Source of the DNA: Candidatus Coprosoma sp.
Lineage (GTDB): Bacteria > Bacillota_I > Bacilli_A > RF39 > UBA660
DNA length: 55,277 nucleotides
Direction: 5' to 3'
Assembly (NCBI GenBank): GCA_963928595.1
Contig: CAWVFK010000014.1
Span: 1 to 55,277 of the forward strand
The first letter of the stretch is position 1, and each line of letters starts with the position of its first letter. A program made the position numbers and the translations under genes. Under the pieces are notes generated by a model. The model searched no databases. It was not told where the DNA came from and was given only the letters and a program-made list of their open reading frames with translations. Below are positions 1,245 through 45,704 of the stretch, in pieces.

Positions 1245-3251
1245 CTAGTTATTACGCGTAGTATCAACAACCACTTTTCCTTTTTGTAATTTGATATACT
1301 TGTCAAATAAATCCAAATTATCTAATCTATGTGAAATGTAAATTATAGTTTTATATTTGTAAGTTTTCATCAGTTTTTTTAAAATCCTCCTTTCCATATC
1401 TACACTTACTTGATTTAATCCTTCATCAATAATGATAATGTCAAAATTATTTAAAGCGCGAGCTAAGACAATACGCTGTTTTTGACCACCAGATAAATTA
1501 AATCCATCTTCTTCAATTATCTGATAATAATTTCCTTTTACAAATTTATCTATTTCACATATTTTAGTGTTTTTAGGATTTTTCTTTTTTAAGTTTAAAT
1601 TATCTTCTAAGGTTCCCGTAAATAGTATTTCTTTTTGAGAAACATATAAAATATTATTAAAATTATATTTTTTTATTTCTTTCTCTCCTATTTTCACACT
1701 ACCTTGATAATCTTGATAGTAACCTTTGATAATTTTAAATAATGTGGATTTACCACTACCACTATCACCTGTTACCATAACTTTACTTGATTTAGATATT
1801 TTTAAATTAAGTTTTTTTAAAACATGATTATCTTGGTTAAATATATAATTTAAGTTAGTAATAACAATATCACCATTTGCTTTAATAGGTTTTATGTTTT
1901 CTGATTTTTTGGTAGTTAATTCGGTTATATTGCTTAAAGCTGTTTTAACCTCATTTATTTGATAGCTAAAGTTAAAAAGATTTTTAAATGAAGATATAAG
2001 TAATGAAGATAAAATAAACAAAGTGACAAAAAGCGTTATATCACTATTACTTTTTTTTATGATAAATATGACAATTAGAAATGTACTTAAAGTTTCTAAC
2101 ATGTTCTTTAATAAATTATGATTTCCCTCATTTGTAGATAATTTCTTTTGACTGTTTATAAAATTTTGATATTTGTGATTAAATGTATTATATATTTTAG
2201 GAGTAATATTTAAATTTTTAATAGTTTCAAAGCCCACGATACTTTCTACAATGTATGAACTATTTAAAGCTTTTGTTCTAATCATTTCTGAGATCCATAC
2301 TTTTTGTTTTTTTTGGTAAATCGAAGTAATTAGTGAGAAAAGTAAAACACTGATAAAAGATATTATTAAGACAGAAGGATCAATACAAAAAATGATTATA
2401 CTTATAATTAAAATTAATGGGATTTCGAGAAAAACTATTTGAATAAACTCATTTATAGCATTTCTAATTATCGAAAGATCATTAAAGTAACTTGTGATTT
2501 CTCCAGTGGTTTTACGGCGGTAATAACGATAAGGAAGGTTTAAAATATTTTTAAAAATATCCATGGATAATTCTTGATCGAGCTTTATATTAAAATTTAA
2601 AAGCAACTTGTCTTTAAAGAAAGATAAAAGGTTTTTGGTAACAAAAATTAAAGAAAAAATTAGAAGCAGGTTTGTGACATTTTTTTTACTATTAATAATA
2701 GCTGGTATAAAAAGTGAAGTTAAAAGTGAAAAGATACTAACGATTATAGAAAAGACATAGATAATAATTACTAATTTTGAATGTTTTTTTATATAACGAA
2801 ACAGAAATTTTATAACTTGAGGCTCTGGTTCAGACACAATTTTGGAAATTGGCCTCATTTGAATAGTAACTCCACTCCATATTTGATAAAAATCTTTAAA
2901 GGACATTGTTTTTAAGTTTGTAGCAGGATCGGCAATGAATAAAGTTTTTCGTTTTGGATTTACCTTATAGATGACAATGTAATGTTTGTAGGAGCCATTA
3001 ACAGTTACATGTGCGATACAAGGTAATTTGAGATTCAAAACATCTTGTGATTTTATTCCGACACTTTTAAAACCTAAAGAATTCAATGTTTCTTTGATAT
3101 TATAAGCGGTTGTACCATTTTTATTGGTATTCATCATCTCACTTAGCTTGTCCATATTTACATACCCGTGATAGGACTTTAATATCATCTGCACACAGGC
3201 TGGACCACAATCTTTAATTCCACATTGCTTGACAAAAGGATATTTTCTAAT
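1245..3251 (-). CDS. Peptidase C39-containing ABC transporter (PCAT, ComA/SunT-like)
   Basis: The C39 motif VKQCGIKDCGPAC lies upstream of the GTG called by the ORF track; His in HYIVIY; TM domain; Walker A GDSGSGKST, LSGGQ, ISHRL. Start inferred at ATT 3251 (or ATA 3254) behind AGGGAGGTG. Confidence 0.9.
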   Translation of the reverse strand: MRKYPFVKQCGIKDCGPACVQMILKSYHGYVNMDKLSEMMNTNKNGTTAYNIKETLNSLGFKSVGIKSQDVLNLKLPCIAHVTVNGSYKHYIVIYKVNPKRKTLFIADPATNLKTMSFKDFYQIWSGVTIQMRPISKIVSEPEPQVIKFLFRYIKKHSKLVIIIYVFSIIVSIFSLLTSLFIPAIINSKKNVTNLLLIFSLIFVTKNLLSFFKDKLLLNFNIKLDQELSMDIFKNILNLPYRYYRRKTTGEITSYFNDLSIIRNAINEFIQIVFLEIPLILIISIIIFCIDPSVLIISFISVLLFSLITSIYQKKQKVWISEMIRTKALNSSYIVESIVGFETIKNLNITPKIYNTFNHKYQNFINSQKKLSTNEGNHNLLKNMLETLSTFLIVIFIIKKSNSDITLFVTLFILSSLLISSFKNLFNFSYQINEVKTALSNITELTTKKSENIKPIKANGDIVITNLNYIFNQDNHVLKKLNLKISKSSKVMVTGDSGSGKSTLFKIIKGYYQDYQGSVKIGEKEIKKYNFNNILYVSQKEILFTGTLEDNLNLKKKNPKNTKICEIDKFVKGNYYQIIEEDGFNLSGGQKQRIVLARALNNFDIIIIDEGLNQVSVDMERRILKKLMKTYKYKTIIYISHRLDNLDLFDKYIKLQKGKVVVDTTRNN

Positions 3252-3343
3252 TATTTCACCTCCCTTATATTTTATATACGACGTTTTGAAGGTGAAATCC
3301 TTTAAAAAAATAAAATTTATTAAAAAAATGGTATTTTTACCAT

Positions 3344-3871
3344 TTATAAATTGTTTTTATATATTTTAATTTTTTTAGGGCCATAACTTTTTTCTTTGAT
3401 TAATTCGAGGTTGGTGTGAGGCTCACCTATCTCATATTCACAGATGACAATTCCATTTTCATTTAATAGGTCTCTTTCTTCAATTATGCGCAAGGACTTG
3501 TCTAATTGGTTTTCTTTATAAGGGGGGTCTAAAAAAATAATATCAAATTTTTTATCAGTTGTTTTTAAGAATTTTTTATAATCAATATGAATGATATTTA
3601 AAGTTTCTTCAAAATTTTGGCTATTTTCTTTAATGGTTTTAATAGCTTCTATATTATTATCAATTAAATAACACTCTTTAGCTCCATTACTTACGGCTTC
3701 TAAACCTAAGGCTCCACTACCGGCAAATAAATCCAAAACTATACTACCATGAATATAAATTTGAATCATACCAAATAATGATTCTTTAACTCTATCCATA
3801 GTAGGTCTCGTACCTTCAATATTAAATCCATTTAATTTTTTTCCTTTATATTTTCCACTTATAATGCGCAT
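3344..3871 (-). CDS. rsmD: 16S rRNA (guanine966-N2) methyltransferase
   Basis: MRIISGKYKG, TRPTMDRVKESLF, LDLFAGSGALG and DIIFLDPPY motifs. Confidence 0.95.
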   Translation of the reverse strand: MRIISGKYKGKKLNGFNIEGTRPTMDRVKESLFGMIQIYIHGSIVLDLFAGSGALGLEAVSNGAKECYLIDNNIEAIKTIKENSQNFEETLNIIHIDYKKFLKTTDKKFDIIFLDPPYKENQLDKSLRIIEERDLLNENGIVICEYEIGEPHTNLELIKEKSYGPKKIKIYKNNL

Positions 3872-3899
3872 AATTAATCACCGTTTATATTTTAACACA

Positions 3900-4121
3900 T
3901 TATTTGAAACTGACCAATATTTTTTCGAGCATTTCAAAGGTATTAAAGACTCTTTCTAATCTATCAACTTTTGATAGATGATATTCTCTTTTAACTTCTT
4001 CTTCAAATCTTTTAAATTCCCAAGGTGTTCTATTTAAGGTTTTATACCACTGAGCGTGCTGACGAAGATATCTTAGATAGTTTTCATTTTCTTTTATTTT
4101 AAATTGTAAGTCTAAAGTCAT
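3900..4121 (-). CDS. ylbE: YlbE-like protein
   Basis: YLRQHAQWYKTLNRTP resembles the YlbE IREQPIWYRRLSR pattern; follows ylbD. Confidence 0.75.
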   Translation of the reverse strand: MTLDLQFKIKENENYLRYLRQHAQWYKTLNRTPWEFKRFEEEVKREYHLSKVDRLERVFNTFEMLEKILVSFK

Positions 4122-4480
4122 TAATCATCAAAGTGTTTATATATTGGCCTTGGCTTATAATTATTAGTTTGAGGTGTTTGTTTATTCGATGACATATCTT
4201 GAAGTAAACTTAAAACTCTTTGTAAGCTAGTAACACCATTTTGAATACCATCTAAATCTAAGCCTTTAATAAAATTAGTCAAGTCAAAGTTAGTAGTTTG
4301 CTTTACCGGAGTACTTTCTTTGACTAGATAATCTTTCCAAGCTTCTTTGTCTTCACCATAGATATCATATATTTCATAAAATTGTTGCCAGGTCATTTTT
4401 CCATCTTTAACATGTTTTAAAAGAATTGGATTACTTTTAACAAAGTCTTTAAATTTTTCTTTTGTTTCCATATGTATCAC
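4121..4480 (-). CDS. ylbD: Spore coat protein YlbD-like
   Basis: FKDFVKSNP...TWQQFYEIYDIYGED matches the YlbD N-terminal pattern; ylbD-ylbE-rsmD order. Confidence 0.75.
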   Translation of the reverse strand: MIHMETKEKFKDFVKSNPILLKHVKDGKMTWQQFYEIYDIYGEDKEAWKDYLVKESTPVKQTTNFDLTNFIKGLDLDGIQNGVTSLQRVLSLLQDMSSNKQTPQTNNYKPRPIYKHFDD

Positions 4481-4537
4481 CTATATTAATATATTCATTA
4501 TATAGGAAAAAAACACACAATTTATAAAAAAACTTAA

Positions 4538-5041
4538 TTATGAATTTTGGACATAATTAAGTTTTACAGTTAAAGTTCCAGATAATTCTGTAGGTTGAGT
4601 TGTAACATTACTATTATATGCAATAGTGACATCATACTTTTGGCTTTCACCAGCTTTTAATAAATCGTTTTCGTTTATACCAGAGGTTGAAAAAACAATT
4701 GCAGGATTTTGGGATTCAGTCATGTTGATGCTTTCAACTTTGGCGTCGACTGTTCCTTCATTGGTGACTGTCACAGTATACGTCATACTGTCACCAGGAC
4801 TAGTTAAGTTTGTTTTAAACGTTGCAGAAGTGTCAGAAACTACTGGTTCAAAAGCTTTAGTGGCTTCGCCAATAATATTTTTAGTGGTAACATCTGTAAT
4901 TTTAATATCCCAATTACTATCGATATTTGCTGTGCCATTTATATTTAAAGTTGTCGAAAATGCAGCATAAGTTATAGCCATAATACAAACAATAGCTATT
5001 AAAAATGTTATAATAATATTATTTTTTTTCATCATACTCAC
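4538..5041 (-). CDS. SipW-type signal peptide, TasA/CalY-like secreted beta protein (dispersed paralog)
   Basis: Signal peptide ending TYAAF; LNINGTANI; SPGDSMTYTVTVTNEGT; C-terminal YVQ; clearly paralogous to the 17-19.6 kb array and to 45192..45704. Confidence 0.75.
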   Translation of the reverse strand: MSMMKKNNIIITFLIAIVCIMAITYAAFSTTLNINGTANIDSNWDIKITDVTTKNIIGEATKAFEPVVSDTSATFKTNLTSPGDSMTYTVTVTNEGTVDAKVESINMTESQNPAIVFSTSGINENDLLKAGESQKYDVTIAYNSNVTTQPTELSGTLTVKLNYVQNS

Positions 5042-5724: not shown

Positions 5725-7769
5725 CTTTGCCCTCCTTTTATTACTTTATCTGACTCTTCAGTTTTCTTAATTAAGTCATGAACTATGATGTCATTAGAAA
5801 CCGCAATTTCTTTTTCAGCTATATCAGTATATTTAGATATGTAGTTTTTGTCAATAACAGAATCTTCGTCAAAGACAATTGCTTTGCCATTTTGACTATC
5901 ATAATACATTTTATCGGTAATCCAGTTTCCATTAGGGAAAATAACGTAGTGGTCATCAGTACTAAAGACATCGTGACCTAAAGCATATTTATCATAAATA
6001 CCAAGCATATTACCTAAGGTTGGAAGAACGTCGTACATGCCAGTTACTGTAGTAACTTCTGTATTGATTTTCTTCCTTAATTCTTTATCTTTAGTCCAGA
6101 TAATAAGTGGTACTTTACGATTAAGCTCATAATCATATTTAGTAAATTCTTTATAATTTGGATCACTACTTGAAAGTTTAGAGTCAGTTTCAGGGTTGTA
6201 GTTATAGTAGTAATCATATTCTGATCTTTTGATTTTAGCATCGTGGTCACCATAGATGACTAAGACAGTATTATCTAGTAATCCTTCTTTATCAAGCTCA
6301 TCGACAAGTTCACCAATGGCCTCATCAGCATAATGTGCGGTTGTAAAGTAATGTCCTAAAGTTGTGTTTGATAAATAATCATTGACAACTTCGGTTTGTT
6401 CACCAGTAACTTCGTCAGTTTTAGTGTAATGATATGTTAAATCTAAATCAGTTTGATCTTCTAATCCTTCAAATGGGGTATGATTTGTAAGCATGATCAA
6501 AGTTCCATAATATTTATCATGTTTTTTAGCAATATTTTTTATTTTTTGAACCGATTGTCTAAAGAAAGATTTATCTGAAAGGCCTAAGCCAATAACTTCA
6601 TCGATATCATAATCTTTATCATAGTAATAGAATTTATCGTATCCTAATTGTTTATGCATGACTTCCCTATTCCACATGTTTCCTTTGTTAGCATGCATAC
6701 TAAAGACATAATAATCTTCATTTTTTAAGAATTTTTGAATTGATGGATATTCTCTATCCCAGTAACTGACAAATACGGTACCACTACTTGCTGGAAGTAG
6801 AGATGTACTATAAGTAAATTCGGTATCACTACTTGTTCCAACACTTTCTTGAGCATAAAAGTTAGAAAAATACATACCTTCATCAGCTAATTTCTTTAAA
6901 TTAGGGGCAATAGCTTTTCCATTAATTTCAGTATCTAACAGATAATTTTGCATGCTTTCGGCATGAATAACAATGACATTTTTATCTTTAAATATATCCG
7001 TATATTTGTTGGTAGCATCTTCATGGGTATTTTCTGCATAATAATCTCGAAAGTATTTAGCAGCGGTATCATATCCAAATAAAGGACTAATTTGTGGTTT
7101 TAAGCTAGCAATTAAGTCATTTCCTTGATAGACATAAATACCGAACTTCATAACAACATATTCTCTATTCCATTGTTTATATAATCTACTAATATCCGTT
7201 CCAGTTAAAGTTGAAACGAAGAATCCTAAGACAATAGCAGCAGCTACTAAGACTTTTAAAACACTAACTCTAAGTTTGTCTTTAATTTTGATTTTTTCAT
7301 AATAACCATGTTTTAAAAGTTTACGATGAACAAATATTAAAGTTAATGGGGCCCAAATATAACAGAAATCTTTTAATTCCATAATAGTTTTTAAGGCACC
7401 AGTCACTCCTCCTAATTGAAGAGAAGTAGCTAAAAGTGAGAACGATGTAAATGAGACGTAGTTTGTATAATAAATAGAATTAATTAAACAAACTAAGGTC
7501 AAAACAATCGAACATGTCAGAAAATATTTAAATCTATTTTTAGGTTTGAAAAAATAAGCAAAAGCACCAACAAATAGAATAAAAGCTAAATCAGCCAATA
7601 TTGGAGATATGGCTGTATAATTTTTTACTGTTAAAAAACGAATCAAACATCCATTAATCAAGGAAGTTATGATAAATGTTGTAAATAAAACATTATTTTG
7701 GAAAAAATATATTACTTTGTCTTTAGACTTTTTTAGAATATTTAATAATCTATGACCAAATTTTTTCAT
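5721..7769 (-). CDS. ltaS: LTA synthase family protein (sulfatase-like)
   Basis: Five N-terminal TM segments; NVIVIHAESMQ, GTSSDTEF, LTNHTPF and YGDHD motifs; start at ATG 7769 behind GAGGTGG. Confidence 0.88.
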   Translation of the reverse strand: MKKFGHRLLNILKKSKDKVIYFFQNNVLFTTFIITSLINGCLIRFLTVKNYTAISPILADLAFILFVGAFAYFFKPKNRFKYFLTCSIVLTLVCLINSIYYTNYVSFTSFSLLATSLQLGGVTGALKTIMELKDFCYIWAPLTLIFVHRKLLKHGYYEKIKIKDKLRVSVLKVLVAAAIVLGFFVSTLTGTDISRLYKQWNREYVVMKFGIYVYQGNDLIASLKPQISPLFGYDTAAKYFRDYYAENTHEDATNKYTDIFKDKNVIVIHAESMQNYLLDTEINGKAIAPNLKKLADEGMYFSNFYAQESVGTSSDTEFTYSTSLLPASSGTVFVSYWDREYPSIQKFLKNEDYYVFSMHANKGNMWNREVMHKQLGYDKFYYYDKDYDIDEVIGLGLSDKSFFRQSVQKIKNIAKKHDKYYGTLIMLTNHTPFEGLEDQTDLDLTYHYTKTDEVTGEQTEVVNDYLSNTTLGHYFTTAHYADEAIGELVDELDKEGLLDNTVLVIYGDHDAKIKRSEYDYYYNYNPETDSKLSSSDPNYKEFTKYDYELNRKVPLIIWTKDKELRKKINTEVTTVTGMYDVLPTLGNMLGIYDKYALGHDVFSTDDHYVIFPNGNWITDKMYYDSQNGKAIVFDEDSVIDKNYISKYTDIAEKEIAVSNDIIVHDLIKKTEESDKVIKGGQR

Positions 7770-11385: not shown

Positions 11386-12426
11386 TCAAACTTCACTGAT
11401 GACATATGGGTTGGTTTCTGAACCAGTACCGCCAATTATTTTAACGTTTTCATCAACAGTTAAAACTGGACGAACGTTTAAAGTTTCTGTACTACTTACA
11501 GTACTAATTAAACCATTATTTATAACATAAACATTACCATTTAAACTATTCAATGTATACTCAGCGCCATTTGTTTCAGAAAAATCTGACAAGTAATTAC
11601 CAACTGTACATTCAGCTTCATTACCTGAGATACATTTTAAATTATTAGAGGCATTTAAATAATCCTCAGTAGTTAAAAGACCAACAGTAATGTTTTCACT
11701 ATTGATACATTCATCATCATTATATGCTAAACAGAACTTTGATGCTTTAAATTCCCCAACACTATTTAAACTGTTATAAAAAGTATTGTTTAAATAAGTT
11801 TTGACAGTAGAATCATTAAAATCAGTACTACCATCGTTATCCCAAGATATTTGGGCAGTTTGTTCATTACTAATGATTTTAATACTACCATCACTATTGT
11901 TACTTAAAATGCGCCATAATTTACCATCCAATTTTAGATAGTTGTCGGGATTATCTCCTTTATATATACCGCCATCTGCTACTAAGACATCTTTTTTTTT
12001 AGAATTATTAATGATAGTTGTCGATAAATTATTTACAGATACTTCATTTGACTTAGATGCGGTATCAATATATTTATAAGTAAATTGTTTGATACTACTA
12101 TCATATTTTATTTCGACATTGCCGGTTAAATTTTTACTACTATTACGAGGATCTTTGACTTCATCGTCAGATATATACCCTTCTTCTAGCAATGTATTAA
12201 CAGAAAGACGATAAACAGTCCCATTATCTGGAAGAGTACTCGCATTATCAATACTCCAGTTTTTAGCGGCAGATTCAATAACAGCAACTTGATCTTTATA
12301 AGCACTTTCCCTAGAGTTTCTGATTACTGAACCAATGGCTGGATAAACAATTAAAGCGATTAAAGCTAATATGGCAACAACAGCTATTAATTCAACTAAA
12401 GTAAAACCTCTTTTATTTCCTTTCAT
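11386..12426 (-). CDS. Type IV pilin-like protein with a large C-terminal extension
   Basis: Class III signal KRG|FTLVELIAVV; ComGC-like VNTLLEEGYI; extra domain of about 220 aa (NYLKLDGKLWRIL...VRPVL). Confidence 0.85.
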   Translation of the reverse strand: MKGNKRGFTLVELIAVVAILALIALIVYPAIGSVIRNSRESAYKDQVAVIESAAKNWSIDNASTLPDNGTVYRLSVNTLLEEGYISDDEVKDPRNSSKNLTGNVEIKYDSSIKQFTYKYIDTASKSNEVSVNNLSTTIINNSKKKDVLVADGGIYKGDNPDNYLKLDGKLWRILSNNSDGSIKIISNEQTAQISWDNDGSTDFNDSTVKTYLNNTFYNSLNSVGEFKASKFCLAYNDDECINSENITVGLLTTEDYLNASNNLKCISGNEAECTVGNYLSDFSETNGAEYTLNSLNGNVYVINNGLISTVSSTETLNVRPVLTVDENVKIIGGTGSETNPYVISEV

Positions 12427-14654: not shown

Positions 14655-15746
14655 CTAATCTTGTTTAACGAAATGATCGAAATCAGATTCTCTTAATGTG
14701 AATTTGTATGCTGTCGCATTATTTACGATGACAAATACACTTTCAACATTTTCTTTAACTTCGAAGTAAAGTATTGGTGAATGCAATTCTTCTTCAACAT
14801 CTACTAAGTCGTTAAAGTTCTTAACATTGATAACATCATATTTTTCTAAGTCTGGCATATTGTGAGTTTCAGCGATGATATCAGCATATTCTTTTAAGAT
14901 CTTGTTAAGAGCTAGAACATATTCAGATTTTCTAGTTACAGCAAGTAGACTCTTAGCTAAGATTTTGAATGCTACTAATGAGATAACTAATAATACAATA
15001 CCAAACATTAATAATGGAATATTGATTTCAGCTGTTTCTTCAGCTGATTTATAAATTGTATCTCCACCACTATTTACATAGTTAGGTTTAATATTCATGG
15101 TTTGTTGTAATAATGGAATTTCTAATACCATAGTGTTTGTAGCTTGCATTTTTTCATCACTTACACCAGCTAAGCCAGCAGTAATATTAATTTTAACGCT
15201 TAAATCAACTCTCGCATCCAATGATAAACCAAATTGATTACGGAAATCAGTCATAATATCATTATATTGATTGTAATTTAATCGAACATTTTTGCTGATA
15301 GTGAATGAATCACCAGTACCACTTTGACTAGCTTGGTTAGCTATAGGATATTCTTTTGACCAAACTTCAACATCTTCTCCATCTGTGTTTTGATATAGTC
15401 CTTTAGCTGTGGCAACTATTGAATAAGTATAACTATAATCAAGTTCTTTAGTACTTTGGAAATTATAAGATGCATCAACATCAATATAATCAATTAATGA
15501 AGTAATATACTGTTTATTCATTCCAAGATAAGGTGATGTAAAGAATTGATTATCTTTTAAGTATACTTTATAATTTAAATTTGAATTATAAGTATATGAA
15601 TATAATTTTTCTTGAGCAGCTTGTTCAGGATTCAAGCTTTTAACAATTGATACAATGGATACCACCGTAACGGCGATTACAGCGATTAATAAGAATACTC
15701 TAATCCACTGTTTTAAAATTATTTGATTTTCATTTTTTTGTTTCAT
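14655..15746 (-). CDS. DUF5305-like membrane protein (TM, ectodomain, TM, cytoplasmic domain)
   Basis: Two TM helices flank a beta-rich ectodomain (IDYIDVDASYNF, VWSKEYP); directly downstream of the S26B peptidase; family name assigned from memory. Confidence 0.6.
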   Translation of the reverse strand: MKQKNENQIILKQWIRVFLLIAVIAVTVVSIVSIVKSLNPEQAAQEKLYSYTYNSNLNYKVYLKDNQFFTSPYLGMNKQYITSLIDYIDVDASYNFQSTKELDYSYTYSIVATAKGLYQNTDGEDVEVWSKEYPIANQASQSGTGDSFTISKNVRLNYNQYNDIMTDFRNQFGLSLDARVDLSVKINITAGLAGVSDEKMQATNTMVLEIPLLQQTMNIKPNYVNSGGDTIYKSAEETAEINIPLLMFGIVLLVISLVAFKILAKSLLAVTRKSEYVLALNKILKEYADIIAETHNMPDLEKYDVINVKNFNDLVDVEEELHSPILYFEVKENVESVFVIVNNATAYKFTLRESDFDHFVKQD

Positions 15747-15762
15747 CTTTCTTCTCCCCTTC

Positions 15763-16911
15763 TTATGATATTGCACCACTTAGCCATACTGATGGATATC
15801 CAATCAATGGTATAACAAATGATACTTTTCCTTTTACATCTTCTAAAGCAACTTTATCAGCATCAACAGCATTGTTATGATCACCTTTGGTAATGAACTG
15901 TTTGTTGCCTTTACTGTCATTAGTAATTTCTACTATTCTATGAACAACATATTTTGTTCCACTAACGAATTGAATTATGTCTCCTTTTTTCAATTCATCT
16001 TTTTCTCTGGTGGTAAGTTTATTAACTACTACTGCATCACCTCGATTAAATGTTGGTGACATACTACCAGATAAAACAGCAATTGGTTGATATTTGAATA
16101 ATCCCATAACGAAGCCGGCAAGTAATGCGATAAATGCGAATACTGGGACATATACCACCGGGTTATAACTTCGCCTTTCTCTTTTAGATAGTCTTTCTGA
16201 TCTATTTACATGAACATAGTTCATATAGATATAAATTGCGAGTGGTAAGGTTACACCAACTATTGCAGTAGCAAACCAATCTAGATTTGGAATGATTGGT
16301 ACAATGAATGGCGGAACGGTGACAAACAATCTATAAATAATAGAAAATTTAGCTCCACCTATATATACTAGATAAGTAGCCAAAGCACTTTCTAATATAG
16401 CTGGTATTAAAGTAGTTGAAGAATAAATAAATATTTCTTTTAAATCTGTAAAATGACTACCAATATTAGAATAGTTTAAGTTTATTAACATAAATATTAT
16501 AGTCATTAAAATAAAGTTCATAGCTTTTTTCTTTTCGTTTTTGACTAAGGCTTCTCTAATAAATTCTTGGAAGAAAACAAGTCCAGCAAAAGACCATAAG
16601 TTTTTCAAAATACTAAGTAGATCTTTTGAGTAAGGTGTTTTTTCAAAACCAAAAATTAATCCGAGTAAGAGGTAAACGATTATATAAATGATAAGTGCTA
16701 TAATTAAACTTTGTGTTTTATCTTGTTCACCCTTGACCCTTAAACTAGAATCTCGACTTAGGAAAATAGCAATTCCACACATGAAAATCCATATAAACGG
16801 ATGAATAATTTCATTATAATAGTTGAGATTTAGTGGGACAATGACAAAGACATTTAATACTAAATATATAATTAATAAACTATATATTATTAGGTTCTTT
16901 TTCATAATCAT
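15763..16911 (-). CDS. sipW: SipW/ER-type signal peptidase I (S26B) fused to an N-terminal polytopic membrane domain
   Basis: VLSGSMSP (Ser), GDAVV, VVHRIV (His) and TKGDHNNAVD motifs in the C-terminal ~130 aa; about 7-8 TM helices N-terminal. Confidence 0.85.
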   Translation of the reverse strand: MIMKKNLIIYSLLIIYLVLNVFVIVPLNLNYYNEIIHPFIWIFMCGIAIFLSRDSSLRVKGEQDKTQSLIIALIIYIIVYLLLGLIFGFEKTPYSKDLLSILKNLWSFAGLVFFQEFIREALVKNEKKKAMNFILMTIIFMLINLNYSNIGSHFTDLKEIFIYSSTTLIPAILESALATYLVYIGGAKFSIIYRLFVTVPPFIVPIIPNLDWFATAIVGVTLPLAIYIYMNYVHVNRSERLSKRERRSYNPVVYVPVFAFIALLAGFVMGLFKYQPIAVLSGSMSPTFNRGDAVVVNKLTTREKDELKKGDIIQFVSGTKYVVHRIVEITNDSKGNKQFITKGDHNNAVDADKVALEDVKGKVSFVIPLIGYPSVWLSGAIS

Positions 16912-16978: not shown

Positions 16979-17052
16979 CTGTAATTTTGGAATTTTTTAA
17001 GGCATTTTTATTTATTGACATTTTTAGAAAAGAAAAAGCTCATTTTTTGAGC

Positions 17053-17610
17053 TTAAGCTTGAACATATGTCATTGTTACTGTTAAATCAGCTGTAACATT
17101 TTGAGCATTTCCTTGTCCCTCTGCTTTGTCAACGAATTCAGCAACAATTGTAATTGTAGCCCTACCATCATTCGCATTTAAAGTTCCAGTTCCTGGACTT
17201 GTAACAGTGTATTTAATGTTACCGTCCTCACTAGTAGCAACTAAACCTTGAATGTCCATGCCTGGAGTGTCGCTTGATAAAGTAATATTGCTTAATCTAG
17301 CGTCTAGGGTTCCAGCATTTACAATTGGGATTGTATATGTGATTTTGTCTCCTGGACTTGTAAAGTTGGCTGTAAAGGTTGCTTGTAATCCACCTTCTTC
17401 AACATTAACTGATCCAGTTGGAGTTGTTCCCATTGTAGATTCTGGATTATAGGCTGCGCCATCACTTTCCATATGAACATCCCAACTTGAAGTAATTTCA
17501 GCACTTCCGTTAATTGTTAGTTGTTGAGCAAATGCGGCATAACCTACAGCCATAACAAATACTACAGCTAATAGTGCACCAATTAGAGCATTTTTGTGTT
17601 TACTTTCCAC
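17053..17610 (-). CDS. TasA/CalY-like SipW substrate, array copy 4
   Basis: GTG start at 17610 (MESKHKN) behind AAAGGA; GYAAFAQQLTINGSAEI; SPGDKITYTIPIVNAGT; ends YVQA. Confidence 0.8.
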   Translation of the reverse strand: MESKHKNALIGALLAVVFVMAVGYAAFAQQLTINGSAEITSSWDVHMESDGAAYNPESTMGTTPTGSVNVEEGGLQATFTANFTSPGDKITYTIPIVNAGTLDARLSNITLSSDTPGMDIQGLVATSEDGNIKYTVTSPGTGTLNANDGRATITIVAEFVDKAEGQGNAQNVTADLTVTMTYVQA

Positions 17611-17629
17611 GTTTTCCATCCTTTCTTTT

Positions 17630-17683
17630 AAGTAGTCTTTGCTACCTTAAATATAATATACCATATTTTGATTTTCTCTTCAA
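17630..17683 (-). promoter_or_regulatory. Promoter and leader hairpin of array copy 4
   Basis: TTGAAG-17-TATATT with TG; AGGTAG-caaaga-CTACTT hairpin (one G-U pair). Confidence 0.65.
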
Positions 17684-17725
17684 GATTGAACATAAAAGAA
17701 AAGCCAAAAGGCTTTTCTATAAGTT

Positions 17726-18280
17726 TTATGCTTGTATAGCATCAACAGTAATGTTAACACTTGCTGACTGTGTTGTACCAACTGATGTAGCACTTGAAAT
17801 AAATTCAGCTTTTACAGTCATAGTAGCTTCTTCACTTGCATCGATAGTTGTTGGATTTGGTCTAGTTACTGTAAATTGAATGTTACCTTTTTTAGCAACT
17901 AAGGCAGTTCCATCCTCATCACCAGTCATAGTAACAACAGGCTCTTGTAATTCAGCATTAATAGTTCCATTATTTTGGATTGTTAGTGTAAATGTAACAG
18001 TATCTCCTGGTTGAACTAAATTAGCTGTTAATGTAGCATTATGTCCATCAGTATAGTTAATTGTTCCTGATGGGGAAGTTCCTCCCGCAAAACCAGCAAC
18101 TGAGTCAATAACCCCAGCACCTGTTGTTTTAGATTGATCGAATGCAATATCCCATCTTGATGTTATTTCAGCACTTCCGTTAATTGTTAGTTGTTGAGCA
18201 AATGCGGCATATCCTACGGCCATAACAAATACTACTGCTAATAAAGTGCCTATCAAGATATTTTTGTGTTTACTTTCCAT
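17726..18280 (-). CDS. TasA/CalY-like SipW substrate, array copy 3
   Basis: GYAAFAQQLTINGSAEI; QPGDTVTFTLTIQNNGT; GGAGG RBS. Confidence 0.8.
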   Translation of the reverse strand: MESKHKNILIGTLLAVVFVMAVGYAAFAQQLTINGSAEITSRWDIAFDQSKTTGAGVIDSVAGFAGGTSPSGTINYTDGHNATLTANLVQPGDTVTFTLTIQNNGTINAELQEPVVTMTGDEDGTALVAKKGNIQFTVTRPNPTTIDASEEATMTVKAEFISSATSVGTTQSASVNITVDAIQA

Positions 18281-18305
18281 GTCATACCTCCTTGTATAAT
18301 ATTTT

Positions 18306-18358
18306 AAGTAGTCTCTCTACTCTATAAAGATATTATCATATTTTTTTGTGTACTTCAA
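18306..18358 (-). promoter_or_regulatory. Promoter and leader hairpin of array copy 3
   Basis: TTGAAG-17-TAATAT; GAGTAG-agaga-CTACTT hairpin. Confidence 0.65.
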
Positions 18359-18404
18359 GAAGAAAAAAAGAAAAACTTTGAAGTTTCTCTTTTCTTGACG
18401 TAAA

Positions 18405-18974
18405 TTACGCAGCTTGTTCAGCTAATGTAGTAACTGTAATACTTGATGATGTTACAGTACCAACACTTTGAGCATTATTATCAAATTCAGCAGTTACAGT
18501 CATAGTAGCAGTTTCACCTTCGTTAATTGTAGTTGGAGATGGTGCAGTTACTGTAAAGATAATGTTACCTGTTTTTACAATTAAAGGATCTTCATTTTCG
18601 TCTGAACCTTCACCATTTAAACTAACAACTGGAGTGTTTAATCTGGCATTAATATTTCCATAGTTTTCAATAGTTAATGTAAATGTAACTTTATCACCTG
18701 GTTGAACTAAGTCTGCAGTGATAGTTGCATTTTGGTCATTGGTGTAGCTAACTTCTCCAGTTGGAGCTGTTGTGCCATTAGCCCCCATTTTGGGAGTGAC
18801 AACACCTGGTTCTCCAGTTGTTTTTGAAGTGTCAAAGCCTACATGCCAGTTTGAAGTGATTTCTGCACTACCATTGATTGTAAGCGTTTGAGCAAATGCG
18901 GCATAACCTACAGCCATAACAAATACTACTGCTAATAGTGCACCAATTAGAGCATTTTTGTGTTTTGCTTCCAT
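18405..18974 (-). CDS. TasA/CalY-like SipW substrate, array copy 2
   Basis: GYAAFAQTLTINGSAEI; QPGDKVTFTLTIENYGN; GGAGG RBS. Confidence 0.8.
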   Translation of the reverse strand: MEAKHKNALIGALLAVVFVMAVGYAAFAQTLTINGSAEITSNWHVGFDTSKTTGEPGVVTPKMGANGTTAPTGEVSYTNDQNATITADLVQPGDKVTFTLTIENYGNINARLNTPVVSLNGEGSDENEDPLIVKTGNIIFTVTAPSPTTINEGETATMTVTAEFDNNAQSVGTVTSSSITVTTLAEQAA

Positions 18975-18997
18975 CTTTTTCCCTCCTATTATATTCT

Positions 18998-19050
18998 AAG
19001 TAGTTACTCTACTCTATAATGATATTATCATATTTATAAAATCTTTTCAA
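18998..19050 (-). promoter_or_regulatory. Promoter and leader hairpin of array copy 2
   Basis: TTGAAA-17-TAATAT; GAGTAG-agtaa-CTACTT hairpin. Confidence 0.65.
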
Positions 19051-19106: not shown

Positions 19107-19607
19107 TTATCCTTGAACATAAGTTAAATTCATAGTAACACTACTAGTTGTGCTTTCTGGCATCGTAGTATAAGAATTATTAAATGTTACAGTAATAGTA
19201 AAGGTTTGGGCTTCTCCAGCATCAATTACATCATTTTGGCTTATTCCGGAATAACTATATTGTATAGCATCGTTATTGGAATCAGTAAAAACAATTGAGT
19301 CTAATTTGGCATCTAGAGTTCCACCATTTTTAACTGTTACATCATAAGTAACACTACTACCAGGTGTAGTTAAGTTAGCATTAAATGTGGCACTTAAATG
19401 ATTATCGCCAACAGATGTACTGACATTTTCAGCACCTAATGTGGTATTGTTAACGGCGATATCTTCAATATGAACATCCCAAGTTGAACTAATTTCTGCA
19501 CTTCCATTAATTGTTAATTGTTGAGCGAAGGCGGCGTAACCTATAGCCATAATTAAAACTACTGCTAGTAAAACCATTATCACTGAAGATTTATGCATAT
19601 CTTCCAT
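19107..19607 (-). CDS. TasA/CalY-like SipW substrate, array copy 1
   Basis: GYAAFAQQLTINGSAEI; TPGSSVTYDVTVKNGGT; ends YVQG; own promoter TTGAAA-17-TATATT at 19632-19660. Confidence 0.8.
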   Translation of the reverse strand: MEDMHKSSVIMVLLAVVLIMAIGYAAFAQQLTINGSAEISSTWDVHIEDIAVNNTTLGAENVSTSVGDNHLSATFNANLTTPGSSVTYDVTVKNGGTLDAKLDSIVFTDSNNDAIQYSYSGISQNDVIDAGEAQTFTITVTFNNSYTTMPESTTSSVTMNLTYVQG

Positions 19608-19665
19608 ATTTCCATCTCCTATCTTGATATTAATATATCATAATTAGAAATTCTTTTCAACAAAT

Positions 19666-45191: not shown

Positions 45192-45704
45192 TTAATTATT
45201 TTGAACATAGTCTAAGGCAACTTCAAGAGTACTGTTTAAATCGGCTGGTTGTGATGTAACATCTGGATTATATGTTACGGTAACATCAAAAGTGGCAGTT
45301 GAATGTTCACCTAAAACATCGTTTTCATTAATTCCGGTTGTTTGAAATAATATTGCTGGGTTATTTTCATCACTGATAGTCATGTCATCCAATCTAGCTG
45401 ATATATCACCTTCGTTAGCAACAGTAACAGTATATGTCATACTATCTCCTGGACTTACTAAATTAGTTTTAAATGTTGCCGTGGTATTACTAGTGACTGT
45501 TGGTTCATCAGCTTTGGTGGCACTTCCAGTAAATGATTTTACCTGTATATCAGTAATTCTAATATCCCAGGTACTTGTAATTTTTGAAGATCCAGTAATA
45601 GTTAAATCTGTAGCAAAACTCGCATAACCAATAGCCATAAATAAGACTATTAGACATAAACCTATAATCATCCAGCTTTTTTGTGTTCTATTCATTTTCT
45701 TCAT
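45192..45704 (-). CDS. SipW-type signal peptide, TasA/CalY-like secreted protein (dispersed paralog)
   Basis: GYASFATDLTITGSSKI; TFKTNLVSPGDSMTYTVTVANEG nearly matches the 4538..5041 product; ends YVQNN. Confidence 0.75.
   Translation of the reverse strand: MKKMNRTQKSWMIIGLCLIVLFMAIGYASFATDLTITGSSKITSTWDIRITDIQVKSFTGSATKADEPTVTSNTTATFKTNLVSPGDSMTYTVTVANEGDISARLDDMTISDENNPAILFQTTGINENDVLGEHSTATFDVTVTYNPDVTSQPADLNSTLEVALDYVQNN

Follow-up and report, generated by a model that had tools for sequence, protein, structure and literature searches.

Probable recombination within the common leader of a tandem array of putative AbpX/TasA-type fibre genes in a gut Bacilli genome

How can neighbouring genes carry an almost identical 5' end and then differ along the rest of their length? 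The question is raised by four tandem genes, here called g4, g3, g2 and g1, of Candidatus Coprosoma sp. (assembly GCA_963928595.1, 1.13 Mb in 50 contigs). They lie on contig CAWVFK010000014.1, whose positions 1 to 55,277 form the stretch analysed here (the window) and provide the coordinates used for these genes and their neighbours. On the minus strand the order is argS, g4, g3, g2, g1, a signal peptidase gene and a gene for a DUF5305 protein, and every array copy is an intact open reading frame (ORF) on that strand with its own start codon. The first array member after argS is g4 (19107-19607, class A subunit, 166 amino acids), followed by g3 (18405-18974, 189 amino acids, a class C body with a B2-type promoter region and signal peptide according to the informative sites described below), g2 (17726-18280, class C', 184 amino acids) and g1 (17053-17619, class B, 188 amino acids), the limits of g4, g2 and g1 being those of the ORF list. 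An alternative start of g1 is a GTG at 17610, and its orthologue in the related genome G022 begins at the equivalent GTG. We propose, with a probability of about 0.75, that the 5' ends of these genes are alike because a common leader recombines among genes for AbpX/TasA-type fibre subunits, and that one crossover made g3 a chimera.

The common segment was delimited by an identity profile and by a 148-nt repeat family (D1) with copies at 17476-17623, 18146-18293, 18840-18987 and 19473-19620, the last three being 85, 84 and 73% identical to the first. The leader cassette of g3, encoding a signal peptide and a putative donor strand, spans 18840-18974 (nt 1-135 of the coding sequence, CDS), and the equivalent cassettes lie at 17476-17610 (g1), 18146-18280 (g2) and 19473-19607 (g4), all on the minus strand. 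When g1, g2 and g3 are compared in windows of 30 columns, identity is 22-29/30 over CDS nt +5 to +124 and 6-17/30 thereafter. A preliminary description of this DNA had reported a 47/47-nt identity between g1 (17495-17541) and g2 (18165-18211), a 77/78-nt match between g1 (17524-17601) and g3 (18888-18965), and a collapse of identity just past the codons for EITS. All three were reproduced, the drop falling right after the ITSxW codons, about 125 nt into the CDS. The mosaic pattern that it had noticed is also borne out, as the 5' part of the g1 leader matches g3 and its 3' part matches g2.

Since the genome has a G+C content of 29%, codon bias matters when such identities are judged. As a saturation baseline we used the fraction of identical codons at identical amino acids, which between species is 0.60-0.67 for argS and the peptidase gene, and which lies mostly at 0.45-0.65 for the bodies of the paralogues. 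For the 78-nt tract, 37 gene pairs from different genomes that encode exactly the same 26 residues differ by 6-13 nt (comparisons of G009 with G023, two near-identical genomes, being left aside), and g1 and g3 differ by 1 nt; judged by these pairs, the g1/g3 identity exceeds what chance would produce. The 47-nt tract is less striking on its own, a gene of another species being only 2 nt away from g1 there.

The bodies behind these leaders tell a different story. The family was found in 24/24 genomes searched of the same genus (a CAG-822-type genus of gut Bacilli) and, at E<=1e-5, in none of 16 genomes outside it. The locus is syntenic across the genus, with argS, two to seven paralogues, the peptidase and the DUF5305 gene, while copy number and array order vary between species. 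A tree of the bodies sorts by class (A, B, C, C' and D) across genomes and not by genome, with 35 label changes against 35.9 in shuffles. In this tree g4 falls in the class A clade (support 99) and g1 in the class B group (support 85), whereas the sister of g2 is G012_4 and its orthologue is the C' gene of the sister species, whose array flanks share 88-90% nucleotide identity with those studied here. Against the sister species, the ratio of non-synonymous to synonymous divergence (dN/dS) of the bodies is 0.06 for class A, 0.17 for C, 0.18 for C' and 0.14 for B, to be compared with 0.05 for argS, 0.05 for the peptidase gene and 0.06 for the DUF5305 gene. A ratio of 0.05 was also obtained for g4. 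The bodies had been described as hypervariable; the tree and the dN/dS values of 0.06-0.18 instead indicate old paralogue classes, older than the split of the species and subject to purifying selection, and a recent duplication therefore does not explain the identity of the leaders. Such conserved classes suggest distinct structural roles, for example as major subunit, minor subunit, and tip or anchor.

Does a constraint on the nucleotide sequence explain it? Between orthologues, the synonymous divergence (dS) of the leaders is 0.55-0.66, compared with 0.60 for argS. The leaders thus diverge at the rate of the genome, and nucleotide constraint does not account for their identity. Within a genome, leaders of different classes share synonymous codons at a fraction of 0.69, versus 0.61 for orthologous leaders between genomes, a difference reached in 0 of 5000 label permutations. 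This sharing is specific to lineages, being strong in G012, in the genome of g1-g4 and in G022, and absent in G003 and G006. A nucleotide tree of the leaders (126 columns) places the three non-A leaders of G012 in one clade (support 95/86) and does not separate g1, g2 and g3. These comparisons of synonymous sites support the inference of the preliminary description, in that the leader segment has been homogenised by recombination and not preserved by nucleotide constraint.

The clearest trace of such recombination is found in g3. In the sister species (loci L032-L040 and L044) the array reads A-B2-X-C-C'-Bpseudo, and the array studied here reads A-g3-g2-g1. Over the 130 nt 5' of g3 and CDS nt 1-84, 38 informative sites are B2-like versus 4 that are C-like; from CDS nt 88 on, 164 are C-like versus 15 that are B2-like (Fisher p=6.3e-26). 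The best single breakpoint is at 18887-18891 (minus strand, CDS nt 84-88), a few codons past the predicted signal peptidase site. Judging from these sites, g3 consists of the promoter region, 5' untranslated region (UTR) and signal peptide of B2 joined to the body of C. What is missing relative to the sister species is the B2 body, gene X and the C leader, about 1.4 kb in all, a loss that reads as an unequal-crossover deletion between leaders. Most nearer relatives have a B-type gene at position 2 (G012, G022, L045, L046 and L047, and L055 after an inserted ORF), which points to a deletion in the lineage of the g1-g4 array. Much of the g1/g3 identity is then explained, because the g3 leader is itself of B type. 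The preliminary description had suggested that recombination changes copy number and moves bodies behind other promoters; this is supported by the g3 chimera and by the copy number between species, and a function in variation is not supported.

Further features of the relatives concern the same positions. The sister species keeps an intact B-type duplicate at position 2, and its positional orthologue of g1, the last copy of the array (L032 5373-5930), is a pseudogene with a TAA in the signal peptide and AFA changed to ALA. In the G012 array (L024), two ORFs of 168 and 201 amino acids lie between C and C' at 3137-4491 and by eye resemble the two reading frames of an IS3-type transposase.

Shorter tracts are found in the leaders of g1 and g2. 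In g1, 12 consecutive informative sites (CDS nt 21-87), corresponding to the 78-nt tract, match g3 and not the positional orthologue; orthologue-like sites flank the run on both sides, and it was reached in 0 of 20000 shuffles. The bodies of g1 and B2 differ with a dS of 0.47, whereas the leader tract differs by 1/78 nt. In g2, 9 consecutive informative sites (nt 75-119), corresponding to the 47-nt tract, match g1 and not the orthologue. This run includes the residues SAEITS versus SASISS and was reached in 7 of 20000 shuffles. We describe both tracts, as read from these runs, as conversion-like.

The preliminary description had proposed to compare array order and copy number among conspecific genomes. 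Both differ between species; three other conspecific contigs have the same structure at 99.95-100% identity, and collinear arrays are present in ten sister-species contigs that come from different studies. In the C' gene of the sister species, 13 of 14 single-nucleotide polymorphisms (SNPs) lie within CDS nt 57-155, with an 8-SNP haplotype in two of 9 assemblies (L033 and L035) and 4 more SNPs in one. This cluster fits recombination tracts that are still segregating, and not frequent structural switching. Some observations weigh against recombination as we read it. The contrast that defines the g1 tract may partly reflect a conversion in the sister species from C' to Bpseudo, whose leaders are nearly identical across the same stretch; structural variation within species was not seen in the three conspecific and ten sister-species contigs; and among all sequences compared there was no exact donor for the 8-12 SNP tract in the C' leader. 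We disregarded a variant of 4 SNPs in contig L037 as a probable assembly end artefact, because it lies within the first 54 nt and exactly matches another paralogue. Separately, the class C gene of L044 (Firmicutes bacterium CAG:822 scaffold HF990860, about 6081-6158) carries an in-frame 39-nt tandem duplication that doubles the donor-strand residues AQTLTINGSAEIT. The other nine contigs of that species are without it, and it may have arisen by genuine slippage or during assembly.

Other explanations of the leader likeness have to be set beside these results. Selection alone, acting on the amino acids together with codon bias or on the messenger RNA (translation initiation or structure, for example), could be invoked since the leader protein is nearly invariant across the genus, since, in this genome of 29% G+C, codon choice at a shared amino acid agrees in 60-67% of cases even between saturated orthologues, and since the 47-nt tract is almost matched in another species. 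However, the leader diverges synonymously as fast as argS, gene pairs of different species with the same 26 residues are 6-13 nt apart when g1 and g3 are 1 nt apart, synonymous leader variants track the genome and not the orthologue, and the non-coding region 5' of g3 changes parent as well, so that we consider this explanation very improbable. The least probable alternative in our view is that whole genes were recently duplicated in tandem and that diversifying selection then drove their bodies apart very quickly, in a true case of hypervariability. Copy number does differ among species and some neighbours of the same class are recent duplicates (G022_3/4 and sister-species B2/Bpseudo), but the bodies of g1-g4 belong to classes with orthologues elsewhere, their dN/dS is low, and the synonymous codon identity between paralogue bodies stands at the saturation baseline.

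The mosaic, and g3 in particular, might also have been created by short-read metagenome assembly across a repeat. Several members of the family elsewhere in the assembly do lie at contig ends, and contig L037 of the sister species starts partway through a leader, where about 50 nt agree with those of another paralogue. Against this, three other assemblies contain the same A-g3-g2 junction, the longest exact repeats of the array (47, 42 and 35 nt) are shorter than the k=87 implied by the contig names of those assemblies, and no B2-like or X-like body is present elsewhere in the assembly; an artefact is thus highly unlikely. Taken together, nucleotide constraint (on dS), recent whole-gene duplication (on the body tree) and misassembly (on repeat lengths and the other contigs) were rejected as causes of the near-identity. 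A programmed system of phase or antigenic switching, with frequent changes of the expressed body through leader recombination, is suggested by conserved 5' cassettes in front of differing bodies, by the one documented swap between promoter and body (g3), by the leader SNP cluster segregating among sister-species strains and by a leader that recurs in over 20 genes of this 1.1-Mb genome. It is nevertheless improbable: the ORFs are intact with their own starts, g4, g3 and g1 have promoter-like sites on their 5' side, g2 and g1 are followed by terminator-like hairpins, the copies are co-oriented, the ORF list for 12-26 kb of the window shows nothing that resembles a recombinase, arrays are stable within both species, and the bodies are under purifying selection. 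The antigenic or receptor variation inferred in the preliminary description thus finds no support, because the bodies are conserved, the array is invariant within each species sampled and no switching machinery was seen.

Recombination of a common leader among fibre genes, the explanation that we favour, also concerns the nature of the gene products. We consider that g4, g3, g2 and g1 most likely encode extracellular donor-strand fibre subunits of the AbpX/TasA superfamily, on the basis of the layout with a downstream TIGR02228 peptidase and DUF5305 protein, of weak matches to AbpX and TasA in profile searches, and of an acidic isoelectric point (pI); the gene context was deemed more telling than family scans. 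The peptidase gene (15763-16911, minus strand) encodes a signal peptidase I of 382 amino acids, polytopic and of archaeal/SipW type, which is recognised by TIGR02228 (E=5e-28; 97.9 bits, cutoff 51.85) and Peptidase_S26 (E=4e-9), with GSMSP and HRIV motifs in a catalytic part at residues ~254-380. A hydropathy scan gave six distinct hydrophobic regions, and about three more, moderately hydrophobic, are seen by eye; all lie before or around the catalytic part. The DUF5305 protein (14655-15779, minus strand, 374 amino acids) matches PF17231 (E=2.6e-20; 73.2 bits, cutoff 29), has transmembrane segments at residues 28-46 and 256-274, and is a putative peptidase accessory, a role proposed for DUF5305 proteins in a preprint that likewise gives them two such segments (10.64898/2026.01.04.697558). 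A profile built from 52 homologues and compared with the sequences in the PDB gave AbpX (9sj2, E=0.018) as top match, then TasA (5of1, E=0.062, and 8aur, E=0.069), all of them weak, and the aligned stretches have in common a PG[D/A] ... F ... N.G block. The mature subunits have a pI of ~4.05-4.13, with 10-11% of aspartate plus glutamate, somewhat under the ~15% quoted for AbpX homologues.

The N-terminus is that of a Sec signal peptide, rich in lysine, then hydrophobic and ending in ...VGYA|AFAQ. Cleavage after GYA, a site that we infer along with polymerisation by donor strand and with conservation of the leader through shared machinery, would leave A-F-A-Q-Q-L-T-I-N-G-S-A-E-I-T-S as mature end, in which position 2 is aromatic and position 4 a glutamine. 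The common leader would thus probably be made of the signal peptide and the donor strand AFAQQLTINGSAEITS-W, and the label of signal/donor-strand segment used in the preliminary description is supported. An AlphaFold2 model with a mean confidence score (pLDDT) of 79 shows an N-terminal helix, then low-confidence unstructured residues 27-44, then a beta-sandwich, residues 27-44 behaving in the model as expected of an uncomplemented donor strand. Several results count against the AbpX/TasA assignment. No Pfam or NCBIfam model scored above its cutoff for the four proteins or the 52 homologues. Below threshold, the Pfam matches were to DUF11 (the commonest, in 34/52 homologues), CARDB and Peptidase_M73. 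The last, the camelysin/TasA model, missed its gathering threshold with 15.5-16.4 bits against 22.5, and 9/52 homologues match it at E<=0.1. A Foldseek search of the PDB with the full-length model, signal helix included, returned generic immunoglobulin-like folds (best E=4.8e-3), AbpX and TasA being absent among the 50 matches listed. Finally, position 4 of the donor strand is a glutamine here and an acidic residue has been reported in AbpX.

These features can be brought together in one scheme. The signal peptide would probably be cut by the dedicated polytopic SipW-like peptidase encoded just downstream, with its DUF5305 partner, and the new N-terminus, AFAQQLTINGSAEITS-W, would probably act as a donor strand, filling the gap in the beta-sandwich of the subunit that follows. 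All paralogues would have to suit one peptidase and, probably, a single acceptor groove, and for this reason ~135 nt of leader would stay alike at the protein level while the bodies differ. The common leader would then be the one stretch well suited to homologous recombination among the copies, and it would undergo short-tract gene conversion in patches of 47-78 nt and occasional unequal crossover. One such crossover, between the leader of the position-2 B-type gene and the C leader, would have deleted ~1.4 kb and left the C body behind the B2 promoter, 5' UTR and signal peptide.

A promoter-like site of the type TTGAAA-17-TAATAT with a TG (extended -10) lies 5' of g3 at 19022-19050, and similar sites are found at 19632-19660 (g4) and 17655-17683 (g1), that is, 5' of 3/4 array genes. 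These minus-strand sites are consensus matches only, 14 being observed against 13.4 expected in shuffles. Terminator-like hairpins follow g2 (17697-17718) and g1 (17036-17054) on the same strand, with 4 such sites observed against 1.1 expected. The 5' UTRs of g3 (18975-19020), g2 (18281-18330) and g1 (17620-17650) have a conserved block in common with a short inverted repeat, GTAGAG...CTAC.

The leader is not restricted to the array. About 20 further ORFs of the 1.13-Mb genome begin with this type of N-terminus, consisting of a hydrophobic helix, GYAAF and L.I.G....S.W; they lie on contigs C3, C8, C10, C13, C23, C24, C25, C28, C32, C33, C34, C36 and C42 and in the window at 4565-5029 and 45192-45704 (minus strand). 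Some are 450-983 amino acids long, and one on C25 has a long run of repeats resembling BspA-type leucine-rich repeats. Several copies of the family stand at contig ends, so that the family appears to break the assembly, and the relative G019 has 60 leader matches. Elsewhere in the window, 11386-12426 (minus strand) encodes a type IV pilin-like protein with a prepilin N-terminal methylation motif and a DUF6273-like C-terminal part. By eye this part resembles that of the large leader proteins C8:3051-4472, C3:5503-6891 and C42:25456-25761 (...NPDNY..F/LNG..WRII...), and a DUF6273-like module may thus be attached to two kinds of fibre subunit. As a speculation that we hold to be doubtful, the leader might serve as a universal 'plug' through which a single donor-strand fibre takes up or displays many different proteins, with recombination as a form of combinatorial surface display. 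Among the proteins possibly displayed would be large leader proteins with leucine-rich-repeat and other adhesin-like C-terminal parts. If this were true, leader recombination would be the means by which these gut Bacilli with reduced genomes change the set of expressed modules and the promoters that drive them.

The locus places an uncultured gut lineage with small genomes (CAG-822-type Bacilli), in which the subunit family is strongly expanded, among the probable builders of TasA/AbpX-type fibres. It also offers a clean natural example of a segment conserved for shared processing and assembly that becomes a recombination hotspot of an array, with one crossover, resolved to a 5-nt interval, that brought a promoter and signal together with the body of another subunit. 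The conservation of the body classes corrects a reading as antigenic variation that such a layout makes tempting.

To our knowledge, leader recombination has not previously been described for the AbpX/TasA family. The locus itself most likely falls within the TasA superfamily, in its AbpX-like branch, of which a description has recently appeared. AbpX-like loci occur in bacteria and archaea, with homologues in Bacillota, and combine a signal peptidase I with ten transmembrane helices, a DUF5305 accessory protein and paralogues acting as minor subunits (10.64898/2026.01.04.697558). The array resembles the loci of Pyrodictium abyssi AbpX and its bacterial homologues described there in its small acidic subunits, predicted beta-sandwiches with a Sec signal and a putative N-terminal strand, in the adjacent TIGR02228-type peptidase with many transmembrane helices and the DUF5305 partner, and in its extra subunit-like paralogues. 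It differs in having four tandem paralogues (two to seven in the genus), most of them with promoter-like sites 5', and a glutamine instead of an acidic residue at position 4 of the putative donor strand; the similarity reaches only E=0.018, and no fibre has been observed. In Bacillus subtilis, the TasA fibres of the tapA-sipW-tasA operon assemble by donor-strand exchange (PMC9674648). The likeness to that operon lies in a dedicated SipW-type peptidase next to its substrates and in the common PGD...N.G block. SipW is reported with two transmembrane helices, in contrast to the polytopic N-terminal part of the array peptidase, and the array subunits (~140-165 mature residues) are shorter than TasA and do not reach the Peptidase_M73 model. 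The sequence at the putative cleavage site of the array proteins resembles that of TasA, with an aromatic residue at mature position 2. No TapA homologue was seen, though none was specifically looked for. Among surface-protein multigene families with concerted evolution of their 5' ends, the vsp, vsa and vlp lipoprotein genes of Mycoplasma and pilE/pilS of Neisseria also have a conserved 5' end, encoding the signal peptide, in front of differing bodies, and recombination there alters copy number and the pairing of promoters with bodies. Switching in those systems is frequent and relies on silent cassettes or site-specific inversion, whereas in the present array the ORFs are intact and in the same orientation, no recombinase was seen and the structure is stable within species. 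The locus is thus one of a known kind that evolves by ordinary homologous recombination, in this case unusually clearly documented.

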